From a virus: a stretch of DNA of 64,000 nt. Location of the stretch: positions 1 to 64,000 of IMG/VR virus record IMGVR_UViG_3300026189_001009. The stretch is one strand, 5' to 3'. Position numbers and translations under genes: made by a program. The first letter of the stretch is position 1, and each line of letters begins with the position of its first letter. Below are positions 3,924 through 7,515 of this stretch, piece after piece. A model generated the notes under the pieces. The model ran no database searches. It was not told where the DNA came from and worked only from the letters and a program-made list of their open reading frames with translations.

Positions 3924-3952
3924 TTGACATCTTGTACAAGTTATCATATAAT
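3924..3952 (+). promoter_or_regulatory. sigma70-type promoter, leaderless to queD
   Basis: TTGACA-N17-TATAAT, ATG 6 nt downstream, no SD. Confidence 0.75.
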
Positions 3953-4431: not shown

Positions 4432-6072
4432 ATGATGATGGCTATCTTAACATTGCTATCAGCATTATCAATTAGTGCTGTAGCAATTTATTACTCAATT
4501 GCTGGCTTGGCGGCAATTTTTGCCGGTGCGGCTATACCTATAATGATTATGGGATCTGTGTTAGAAGTTGGTAAACTTGTAACAGCATCATGGTTATATC
4601 AGAACTGGAAAAACGCACCTCGCTTTTTAAAATACTATCTATCAATAGCAGTACTAGTTTTAATGTTTATTACTTCGATGGGTATCTTTGGATTTTTATC
4701 TAAAGCACACGTTGAGCAAACAGCACCGTCTAGTTTAATAGAACAAAAAATAGAACAAATTGATGATAGATTGTTGCGTGAAAATGCTAAAGTTGAGAGA
4801 TTTACTGTTGAGTTAGAAAGACTAAACACAGGAACAAATGTAAGAGTTGACACTTTAGTAGACACAGAACAAGAAAAATTAAATTCAATATATGAAAGAA
4901 TTGATAAAGAAATTGCTGACATCACAGCAATTGCTAATACAAGTATAGAAACGCAAAAACAAAGAATTTTACAAGCCAAAGAACGTGCTGATAGAGATAT
5001 TAAACAAGTACAAGAAAGAATGAAAGGTGCTTTTGGTAAGTCTAAGTTTGATAAAGAAATTGACCAAATTAGAAAAAATGAAGTGGCAGTAGCCGCCGCG
5101 GCACAAAAAGAAATACTATCAATACAAGAAAAATTAAACATTGATATACAAGCAATCAAAGACAAATATCAACCTAGTATAGATGCTCTTACTACTAATA
5201 TATCTAATTTTACAAGTCAAGCTGAAGCTACAACAGGTGAGATAGATACTAAAATTAACGAGATTGAAAGCAAAATAGCATCTTCATATACTATTATTGA
5301 TAGTTTAAATGAAGAAAAATTTACATTAAAAGGCGAAATAAAAGCAATTGAAGTAGAAGTAGGACCAATAAAGTATATTGCAGAATTTATATATGGTAGT
5401 GACCCAACTGTTAATGTATTAGAAGATGCAGTAAGATGGGTGATCATTATTATTATATTTGTATTTGATCCATTAGCTGTATTACTTTTAATTGCGGCCA
5501 ACTATAGTATAACAAAAAGATTTGGTAAAAGTATTGAAGATTTAGCAGAACATAAGTTTGCTAAAGCAAATGACAACACAGGAGTTGAACCAGACGAGTA
5601 TTGGAAAGAAAGATATCAAGACATGAAAGATCAGCTTGATAGATTTAACAAATACAAAGAAACAGAAGATGAACAACCAGATTCTAATCCTATAGTAGAT
5701 GGTTTTGATCCTGCTGAAGTTGAAGGTTATGAAGAGTTTAATAAAAAATACGATGAATCTAGCCCTATAGATGATATTAAAGATTTTGAAAGTGGTAATT
5801 CACATATTAGAGATTTACAAAAACAAATAGATGTTTTCAAACAAAGAGAAATTGATGAAAAGAAAGCACTTGAAGATTATGCCAAAAAAGCTAGAGAAGA
5901 AGATAATGATTGGCAAGAAGAAGTAGTACATGATATGGAATTAGAAAAAGATTTAAAAGAAGTTGAAGAAAAAGTCAAAGAAGATCAGCCCATATTAGAC
6001 GATCCGACCAAAGTCGAAGATATTCAAGTAAATGATTTATCCGATGATGAAGTAAAAAAAAAGACCGAATAA
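4432..6072 (+). CDS. membrane-anchored coiled-coil protein; possibly extended by -1 frameshift to 6296
   Basis: Three N-terminal TM segments, long coiled coil, EVGPIKYIAE...IFVFDPLAVLLLIAAN TM, acidic tail ending VKKKTE. Confidence 0.8.
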   Translation: MMMAILTLLSALSISAVAIYYSIAGLAAIFAGAAIPIMIMGSVLEVGKLVTASWLYQNWKNAPRFLKYYLSIAVLVLMFITSMGIFGFLSKAHVEQTAPSSLIEQKIEQIDDRLLRENAKVERFTVELERLNTGTNVRVDTLVDTEQEKLNSIYERIDKEIADITAIANTSIETQKQRILQAKERADRDIKQVQERMKGAFGKSKFDKEIDQIRKNEVAVAAAAQKEILSIQEKLNIDIQAIKDKYQPSIDALTTNISNFTSQAEATTGEIDTKINEIESKIASSYTIIDSLNEEKFTLKGEIKAIEVEVGPIKYIAEFIYGSDPTVNVLEDAVRWVIIIIIFVFDPLAVLLLIAANYSITKRFGKSIEDLAEHKFAKANDNTGVEPDEYWKERYQDMKDQLDRFNKYKETEDEQPDSNPIVDGFDPAEVEGYEEFNKKYDESSPIDDIKDFESGNSHIRDLQKQIDVFKQREIDEKKALEDYAKKAREEDNDWQEEVVHDMELEKDLKEVEEKVKEDQPILDDPTKVEDIQVNDLSDDEVKKKTE

Positions 6073-6288
6073 GTCCTGAAAAAATTAGTGAAGGTATTGG
6101 TAAAGATAAAAGAAAACTTGACATCCAGGAAGATGTTAATATAAAATTAAGTGAAGTACAAAAGAGTATAAACATGGAAGGCATACACAAAGCAACTAAA
6201 ATAACTTTAGAACATGGTGTAAATTTTACAAATACACATCAAAAAAATAAAGATTGGTTCAAAAATTGGTTAACAAAAAATAACAAAG

Positions 6289-7515
6289 ATGGGTAATAAA
6301 ATAGACATGAAGTGTTCTTTCTGCGATAAGACCAGATCTGATGCTGATAAATTAATTGCTGGACCAAACGAAACATTTATTTGCGATGAGTGTGTCGATT
6401 TATGTCATAATATACTAAAACAAAATAAACTACCAGATTCAGATTCATCAAAAATTAGTATTCCAAATCCAAAAGAATTAAAATCTTACTTGGATGAACA
6501 TATTATTGGACAAGCATCAGCTAAGAAAACAATTAGTGTTGCTGTATATAATCATTATAAAAGAATATCAAACAATTTTAAAGAAGGCAATGACGAAATA
6601 GACAAGTCTAATGTGTTAATGTTAGGTCCGTCTGGTGTTGGTAAAACATTACTTGCTAAAAAAGTTGCAAAGTATGTAGATGTTCCTTTTGCTATTGCAG
6701 ACGCAACTACATTAACTGAAAGCGGATATGTAGGTGATGATGTAGAAAATGTTATTACAAGATTACTTTCCAATGCAGATTTTGACGTTGAACGTGCTGA
6801 ACGAGGCATTATCTATATAGATGAGATAGATAAAAAATCACGTAAATCAGAAAACACTTCCATTACCAGAGACGTTTCAGGAGAAGGTGTACAACAAGCA
6901 TTATTAAAAATAATTGAAGGAACAACTGTCAGAGTTCCTCCACAAGGTGGTAGAAAACACCCAGGTGCTGAAATGATTGAAGTTAATACTGATAACATTT
7001 TGTTTATATGTGGTGGAGCATTTGTTGGTATTGAAAAAATGATGAAGCAAAGAAGTAATTCTTCATACATGGGCTTTGGTAGAAATATTGATGAAATAAA
7101 AACTAACTTTGATGATGTTGAGCCAGATGATTTAATCAAGTTTGGACTGATACCAGAAATAGTTGGTAGACTTCCTGTGCTAGTAGGCTGTCATGAATTA
7201 TCTAAAGATGACTTAAAAAAGATAATGACAGAAACAAAGAACAGTATTATAGATCAAACTAAAAGATTATTTTTAATGGAAAATATTGAATTAGAAATAA
7301 CAGAAGATGTAATTGATTGGGTAGTTGACAATGCTTATAAAAAGAAACTAGGTGCAAGAGGTATAAAAACTATTTTAGAAAAGCAACTATTAGATATTCA
7401 GTATGAATTACCTGCATATAGGACACAAGGTGTAACAAAAATAACACTTAACAAGCAGTCATTAGAAACTAAAGAACCATTCTTAACATACGAGAAAGAG
7501 CAATCAACTAGTTAA
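6289..7515 (+). CDS. clpX: ATP-dependent Clp protease ATP-binding subunit ClpX
   Basis: CSFC...CDEC zinc domain, GPSGVGKT Walker [33 protein letters not shown] loop. Confidence 0.97.

Follow-up and report, generated by a model that had tools for sequence, protein, structure and literature searches.

A conserved A9 run as a probable programmed recoding site at the end of a marine phage membrane-protein gene upstream of clpX

Introduction

Recoding at runs of adenines is well known from dnaX, insertion sequence (IS) elements, the Shigella genes spa13 and mxiE, and tssM. Here we describe a run of nine adenines (A9) that very probably serves as a conserved programmed recoding site, by one of two mechanisms, in a 64,000-nt stretch of viral DNA (hereafter the window; positions 1 to 64,000 of IMG/VR record IMGVR_UViG_3300026189_001009). 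The run lies at 6054-6062, close to the end of a plus-strand gene (4432-6072) for a 546-aa membrane/coiled-coil protein from a viral family without assigned function, and a change to the -1 frame at the run would extend this protein up to the start of clpX. An earlier note on the same DNA had proposed that one gene yields two isoforms here, through a frame change in a gene that is not the classic tail assembly chaperone, and the relatives analyzed below strongly support that proposal.

The closest described systems fall on both sides of the question of mechanism. In Thermus thermophilus dnaX (tau/gamma), a nine-base homopolymer within the coding sequence yields two products that differ at the C-terminus, and no dedicated RNA structure takes part. 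According to Atkins et al. (PMC5009743), this gene relies on a 9-nt A/T run, nine-base runs of A or T are efficient sites of slippage by bacterial RNA polymerase in vivo, and the RNA-DNA hybrid is put at 9-10 bp. In Shigella flexneri, slippage lengthens the C-terminus of the spa13 product by ~100 residues, the last codons of which overlap the start of spa32, and expression of spa32 is strongly affected as a result (PMC5009743). In Citrobacter rodentium tssM1 and Yersinia tssM, the gene for an inner-membrane protein stops just past a poly-A run, slippage restores the C-terminal domain, and both variants are made (PMC4256274). Ribosomal systems include E. coli dnaX, in which a -1 shift on the phased heptamer A_AAA_AAG gives two products with a common N-terminus (PMC3711429, PMC5009743), and the tail assembly chaperone genes G/GT of phages, in which short and long forms arise by a -1 shift without strong stimulators, as parts of PMC3711429 and PMC8163748 have it.

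The window's gene shares with Thermus dnaX the nine-base run and the alternative C-termini, in a reversed layout, with the short form in frame and the long form reached through a predicted slip; it is moreover a phage membrane protein rather than a replication factor. It resembles spa13 in that the extension ends on the start codon of the next gene, although organism and proteins are others, an effect on clpX would have to follow from this arrangement, and clpX probably has a promoter of its own within the extension. In tssM1, the run has 11 A's, both length variants and the ratio between them proved necessary (PMC4256274), and the proteins are unrelated to that of the phage. The heptamer and the direction of the shift are those of E. 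coli dnaX, where the shift truncates the product, whereas it would extend that of the phage gene. Finally, unlike G/GT, the gene is located upstream of clpX-infC-rpsU and not between the tail tube and tape measure genes, and its slip site is a conserved A9 rather than a varied heptamer. Full-text literature searches, which did not extend to the frameshift-cluster supplement of PMC3711429, returned no published description of this site, and the pelagiphage papers examined made no mention of 'frameshift' or 'slippage' concerning this gene.

Results

The A9 run is bracketed by stop codons in two frames

The open reading frame (ORF) at 4432-6072 ends GTA AAA AAA AAG ACC GAA TAA, with the A9 run followed by a G at 6063 and the zero-frame stop (6070-6072) two codons past the run. 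Within these letters, the heptamer A_AAA_AAG (6057-6063) is correctly phased, its zero-frame codons being AAA (6058-6060) and AAG (6061-6063). The -1 frame is closed by a TGA at 6048-6050, one codon 5' of the run, and is then open from 6051 to 6293 (81 codons, 77 of them past the slip) until a TAA at 6294-6296. Since the TGA sets the upstream limit and the zero-frame stop the downstream limit, any change of frame is confined to 22 nt (6051-6072), most of which are the A run itself.

The resulting extension (6063-6296, plus strand) comprises 77 codons plus the TAA, and the earliest ATG, GTG, or TTG in its frame past the run is an ATG at 6174, which opens a 40-codon ORF (6174-6296, plus strand; MEGIHK...NNKDG) that forms the last part of the extension. 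The stop of the extension overlaps the ATG of clpX (6289-7515, plus strand, 408 aa) by 8 nt (ATGGGTAA). A slip after codon 544 would thus give a computed trans-frame product of 544 + 77 = 621 aa. All of the coordinates reported earlier for the ORF end, the heptamer, the two stops of the -1 frame, and the clpX overlap were reproduced, and the earlier observation that this frame has no ATG before 6174 holds for GTG and TTG as well.

Features associated with both mechanisms were found at the junction. The run lies between the -1 stop and the zero-frame stop and is about as long as the RNA-DNA hybrid, as is seen for transcriptional slippage, while the phased X_XXY_YYZ heptamer and the conserved overlapping -1 ORF that lacks an initiation site of its own are those seen for ribosomal -1 frameshifting.

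Related loci share the split and the extension

We recovered 210 relatives of the gene in IMG/VR viral contigs and kept 80 for comparison (loci are designated L followed by a number). In tblastn searches of these 80 loci, the 81-aa -1 peptide matched the six closest, L001-L006, with 41-56% identity (E 5e-17 to 8e-7), and the matches covered residues 19-77, reaching 5' of the sole ATG of the extension. Altogether, 12 related loci share the split at an A8-A9 run (L001-L007, L085, L089, and L090-L092), which bears out the expectation in the earlier note that homologous genes would retain the slip site and the open -1 frame, with the qualification that the extension of L001 lies in +1.

In the other 11 loci, the zero frame ends 1-7 codons past the A9 run (A8 followed by G in L085 and L089), this distance being 1-2 codons in all except L085 (7 codons), and the -1 frame is open for 70-125 codons. 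These loci have three arrangements around the run. L002-L006 read CTA/GTA AAA AAA AAG, with the stop two codons on and a -1 frame that is open for 93-111 codons. L085 and L089, which were found by searches with the extension, read GTT AAA AAA AAG and have only eight A's, while keeping the heptamer and the -1 relation intact. L007 and L090-L092, the latter three again from extension searches, form a subtype reading AAG/GAG AAA AAA AAA G.. in phase 0, with extensions of 117-125 codons. L001 has an A8 run and its extension is shifted to the +1 frame, as though one A had been lost.

The open extension frame was improbable in shuffled sequences at each of 11 loci (P <= 0.002 per locus), and the remaining frames hold 4-21 stops. 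No ATG, GTG, or TTG lies between the run and the conserved block of the extension in the window, L001, L002/L006, or L004, and L007 lacks the conserved Met. Moreover, the conserved block begins at least 17 codons 5' of the ATG at 6174, which is not the pattern of an independent clpX leader gene with its own start. In all 10 of the clpX-adjacent loci checked, the stop codon of the extension either overlaps the ATG of clpX or lies immediately beside it (as ATGA, ATGnnTAA, or TAAATG). Termination followed by reinitiation was considered as a route into the extension and rejected, since inspection of L002-L004 showed no codon resembling a start to be conserved where the zero frame stops.

Chance and assembly

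The A9/-1 arrangement is very unlikely to be due to chance or to an assembly error. In 20,000 composition-preserving shuffles (which, here and in the folding analyses, keep mononucleotide but not dinucleotide content), a 77-codon frame stayed open with P = 0.0004, and the other two frames of the window's extension contain 8 and 11 stops. Across the contig (123,631 nt, 34% G+C), A runs of lengths 5 to 9 number 443, 200, 49, 14, and 1, the sole A9 being that at 6054-6062, and an order-0 base-composition model expects ~14 runs of at least nine A's where one was observed.

The support for the A9 that the earlier note had called for was obtained at the level of contigs. A DNA contig of 825 nt from sequencing run X3 matches 5784-6608 without any difference or gap. 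Another, of 2877 nt from run X4, aligns over 4432-6897 and is likewise free of gaps, differing by 17 substitutions, so that A9 is kept in both.

We also noted that the only other 9-nt homopolymer of the contig is a T9 outside the window, which forms the U-tract of an intrinsic terminator (CGCCCA...TGGGCG stem; G000:C1:116164-116227) and is directly followed on its 3' side by a perfect TTGACA-17-TATAAT promoter.

The run in the wider gene family

Among 79 loci, the maximum length of an A run in the gene's C-terminal half is 5 nt in 2 loci, 6 in 13, 7 in 16, 8 in 12, 9 in 33, and 10 in 3, a distribution that spikes at nine, with 36 of the 79 loci having A9 or A10. Such runs are nearly confined to this gene: among the 39 A or T runs of at least nine in 78 distinct loci (651,652 nt), 29 are at its 3' end, 9 are elsewhere in the gene, and only one is outside it. 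Second A9 runs within the same gene were seen in L036 (5248) and L051 (5302). Across relatives, the A run occurs in codon phases 0, 1, and 2, some of which do not involve AAG.

Other clades combine a different tail with the same device, reading CAA AAA AAA ANN (phase 1) or NNA AAA AAA AAG (phase 2). In a second clade, the -1 frame after A9 or A10 reaches a C-terminal motif, Y.QN.EQ...S(I/V/L)(W/F).K, and the corresponding Y.QN.EQ...S.W.K motif is in frame 0 in the unshifted relatives L062, L064, L071, L074, L075, L078, L080, and L021. Comparison of profiles of the two clades' tails (A1 and A2) by hhalign gave a probability of 0.07%, that is, no similarity, and we make no claim of homology between the tails. 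In a maximum-likelihood tree (a quick IQ-TREE run that omitted L066 and used a truncated L019), split loci are intermingled with unsplit ones in both halves. For example, L065, which has A9 and a zero frame that stops 10 codons on, is sister to the unshifted L074 and L080, and L036 (A9) is sister to L030.

The layout of Thermus dnaX, with the long form in frame and nearby stops in the other frames, is also represented. Six relatives have the A9 in frame (L018, 5407; L030, 5435; L046, 5128; L058, 5221; L060, 5218; L062, 5457), with stops 0-25 codons away in the other frames, so that a slip there would truncate the protein. Hence the family shows both dnaX layouts, the long form being either in frame or reached through the slip. 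A frameshifted A10 variant, L059, accompanies the in-frame A9 loci L058 and L060.

Two further observations concern the tails. L045 (A8 at 5628) and L079 (A9 at 5628) have identical flanks, and both conserved tails are out of frame 0 in L045; this difference reflects either natural variation in run length or a mistake in assembly. Past the A9 in L020 (5637-5799), L022, L023, L033, L038, and L079, ~30 codons are open in two frames simultaneously, frame 0 holding a conserved NYITKVSNKQ(V/I)R motif and frame -1 leading to the Y.QN.EQ..SIW.K tail, likewise conserved, and the unshifted L064, L071, and L075 carry both motifs in a single frame. The two-frame stretch may be a dual-coding overlap that gives two alternative tails.

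Polymerase slippage or ribosomal frameshifting

Under standard decoding, the gene would give the 546-aa protein, ending two codons past the run. A fraction of the products would take one extra step in the Lys frame and then be read through 77 codons in the -1 frame, and the 621-aa form so produced would end in a small C-terminal module of weakly basic character, the stop of which overlaps the start of clpX. As to how the frame changes, we consider slippage by RNA polymerase more likely than a ribosomal -1 frameshift, although sequence by itself does not decide between them, and we give transcriptional slippage specifically an even chance. Host RNA polymerase would re-align on the 9-bp A:T hybrid and insert one A, and ordinary translation of the A-added subpopulation of mRNA would then yield the long form. 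The split frames, the extension's want of a start codon of its own, and the conservation of both run and frames are shown by the sequences; we infer the occurrence of slippage itself, along with the level at which it happens and the ratio of the two forms.

The alternative of a ribosomal -1 frameshift, in which tRNA-Lys in the P and A sites slip back by one base on A_AAA_AAG while the mRNA remains A9, is possible, if on the unlikely side. It has in its favor that A_AAA_AAG is the site of E. coli dnaX (PMC3711429), that it is correctly phased in the window, and that a phased A_AAA_AAA or A_AAA_AAG is present in every split relative; the zero-frame stop, which may help such a shift, is kept 1-2 codons past the run across the clade save in L085. 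Any A9 necessarily contains a phased A_AAA_AAA or A_AAA_AAG, which means that ribosomal slippage is possible at every one of these runs. This counts against polymerase slippage, as do the retention of a phased A_AAA_AAG and of the -1 relation in L085 and L089, where only eight A's remain and a ribosomal site fits, and the direction of the shift, which is -1 in nearly all split relatives. A uniform direction is treated as a pointer to ribosomal frameshifting in section 10 of Antonov et al. (PMC3711429). The only loci that need the other direction, L001, L045, and L059, may be off-by-one alleles or assembly errors.

Several features fit the ribosomal mechanism less well. Seven phased bases would suffice for it, yet it is the length of the run, and not its phase or the identity of the heptamer, that is conserved in relatives, with a peak at nine and the A8+G of L085 and L089 as the exception. 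At split loci the run is nearly always nine, with 7 in none, 8 in one lineage, and 10 in a few. The base immediately 5' of the heptamer occupies a third codon position with four-fold degeneracy; most lineages have an A there, against a background A use of 45-55%. Further, many relatives have A_AAA_AAA followed by C instead of AAG. E. coli dnaX is stimulated by a Shine-Dalgarno-like element upstream and by a hairpin downstream (PMC3711429), whereas folding of 23 phage loci exposed no shared hairpin in the 70 nt downstream or the 60 nt upstream of the run (z from -2.4 to +1.4), and inspection of the flanks by eye revealed no Shine-Dalgarno-like or GGAGG-like element upstream of the run. Lastly, the eight tRNAs of the contig include no tRNA-Lys gene, a count that does not bear on the host's set of Lys-tRNAs. 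The mechanism put forward in the earlier note therefore stands in part: the phased site, the A8 lineage of L085 and L089, and the nearly uniform -1 direction agree with it, and the use of three phases, the peak at nine, and the lack of a shared hairpin suit polymerase slippage at least equally.

A promoter within the extension

A sigma70-like promoter, overlooked in the earlier note, lies within the conserved block of the extension (6118-6147, plus strand). It consists of TTGACA (6118-6123), an 18-nt spacer, and TAAAAT (alternatively, 16 nt and TATAAA), and scores 11/12. The TTGAC is kept in the window and in L001-L004 by means of GAC and ATC, GC-ending codons that are otherwise rare. Contig-wide, sites scoring at least 11/12 against TTGACA-N16-18-TATAAT number 21 on the plus strand and 5 on the minus strand, compared with 3.8 per strand in shuffles, and perfect 12/12 sites start at 3924, 15359, 47794, and 116200 of the plus strand. 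Host-type early promoters appear to be in general use by the phage, and the conservation of this promoter together with the enrichment on the plus strand indicates that clpX-infC-rpsU probably has its own early promoter in the extension. On a transcript from it, the ATG at 6174 could open the 40-aa ORF, such that the last 40 codons of the extension could be expressed separately. Two RNA-library contigs that start at 6182 and 6186 (two studies, depth ~2) share T>C variants at 6318 and 6327 with the DNA strain of run X4.

This promoter raises the possibility that no frame change takes place at all, and that the locus holds just an early sigma70-type promoter and a small 40-aa leader ORF coupled to clpX, the conservation 5' of the Met then being that of the promoter. 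The score of the site, the strand bias of such sites, and the rare codons that keep TTGAC in five loci all accord with this possibility; so does L007, which lacks the TTGACA, the Met, and an adjacent clpX together, and the RNA-library contigs beginning at 6182 and 6186 give a weak hint in the same direction. Gene callers elsewhere predict proteins of 37-40 aa that resemble the 40-codon ORF and start at this Met (P0007, P0010, and P0013).

Some results also weigh against slippage. A search of 1.84 billion representatives with a profile of the extension recovered no long fused protein: the 15 hits at E <= 1e-3 comprised 14 proteins of 37-114 aa and a 29-residue stretch of a 4565-aa protein. Some of the small hits start with an M near the conserved block (P0004, P0006, P0009, P0011, P0014, and P0016); one of these, P0004, had no relative among the viral contigs. 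The sequencing runs were compared as assembled contigs, a level at which minor length variants are hidden, and the two RNA-library contigs (X18, 6182-6332; X20, 6186-6442) do not contain the A9 run.

We nonetheless regard the reading without a frame change as very unlikely. In every locus, the stretch of frame between the run and the promoter, a further 18 to ~65 codons, is free of stops, with the whole frame being improbable by chance in each of 11 loci (see above); the extensions of the L007/L090 type extend for their 117-125 codons without any TTGACA; the run is bracketed within 22 nt by the -1 stop and the zero-frame stop, with the stops directly at the run in L085, L089, and L090-L092; and A9 is nearly confined to this gene. 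The promoter explains part of the conservation, but neither the open frame between the run and the promoter nor the promoter-less extensions. Promoter and recoding can both be real, and we take the two to occur together.

An event at the level of DNA (a hypermutable tract with phase variation and A10/A7 sub-populations, a recent frameshift mutation, or an assembly error) is very unlikely: poly-A tracts are slippery for DNA polymerases (PMC3711429) and close relatives do include off-by-one alleles (L001 A8 against the window's A9; L045 A8 against L079 A9; L059 A10 against L058/L060 A9), but the A9/-1 state is kept across deeply diverged lineages in both halves of the tree, the two parts share one frame in none of the 12 related loci with this extension type, the lack of a long fused protein in the profile search means that no in-frame fusion of this type is known, two further DNA assemblies retain A9 without gaps, and in-frame A9 runs were assembled as A9, which argues against a systematic miscount.

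The protein, its extension, and the phage

The 546-aa protein has hydrophobic segments at residues 1-47, 65-92, and 326-361, between which runs a long stretch resembling a coiled coil; its tail (376-546) is acidic, with 56 D/E against 27 K/R in 171 residues. A GAFGKS motif is present at residues 199-204 (window positions 5026-5043), near the middle of the coiled-coil stretch. Database searches with this protein gave only sub-threshold matches to Tetraspanin in Pfam (E = 3.8e-4, 20.6 vs 32.1 bits) and to SlaB in NCBIfam, and only viral 'hypothetical protein' clusters in the ESM Atlas; PHROGs had no match for either the protein or its extension. The extension fell short of the threshold for Pfam DUF5855 (16.5 bits against a gathering cut-off of 28, E = 0.009).

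For the extension, which is mildly basic, AlphaFold2 with 14 alignment rows predicted two short helices, at 42-54 and 68-78, with low confidence (pLDDT 65, pTM 0.21). Its constant linkage to clpX suggested a possible interaction with ClpX; a complex prediction for the extension and the phage ClpX, run without controls, scored 0.00, which is no answer and counts neither way.

The contig carries cassettes with QueD, ClpX, IF3, S21, and radical SAM genes and looks like that of a pelagimyophage-type marine T4-like phage. The nearest match in an isolate is from Pelagibacter phage Mosig, in which a 326-aa homologue without the tail is located after a putative glucosaminidase.

Discussion

The location of the extension's end bears on the regulation of the genes that follow it. 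Termination of the long form at the clpX ATG would couple part of clpX translation to the slip; spa13 and spa32 offer a parallel. A broader picture can be drawn, which we consider unlikely as a whole: the A9 would be a family-wide, tunable isoform switch in abundant marine T4-like (pelagimyophage-like) phages, with polymerase slippage setting the ratio in which the membrane-anchored protein is made with and without its C-terminal module. Within the clade linked to clpX, one 230-nt segment would then act as the extension, as the early promoter of clpX-infC-rpsU, and as a stand-alone module of 40 aa, and ClpX translation would be gated in part by the frequency of slippage, in the manner of spa13/spa32.

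The finding places a known device in a new setting, a widespread family of marine-phage membrane proteins that lacks annotation and in which the device is deeply conserved. Both layouts occur in this family, in that the slip would extend some members and truncate others, and transitions between split and unsplit forms are seen among sister lineages. Gene callers mis-annotate such loci, rendering them as a truncated gene followed by a gap or a tiny ORF. The family also offers a natural series for telling polymerase slippage from ribosomal slippage. Finally, the extension's overlap with the beginning of clpX points to a simple route by which a phage may tie the expression of a chaperone/unfoldase operon to that of the gene upstream.

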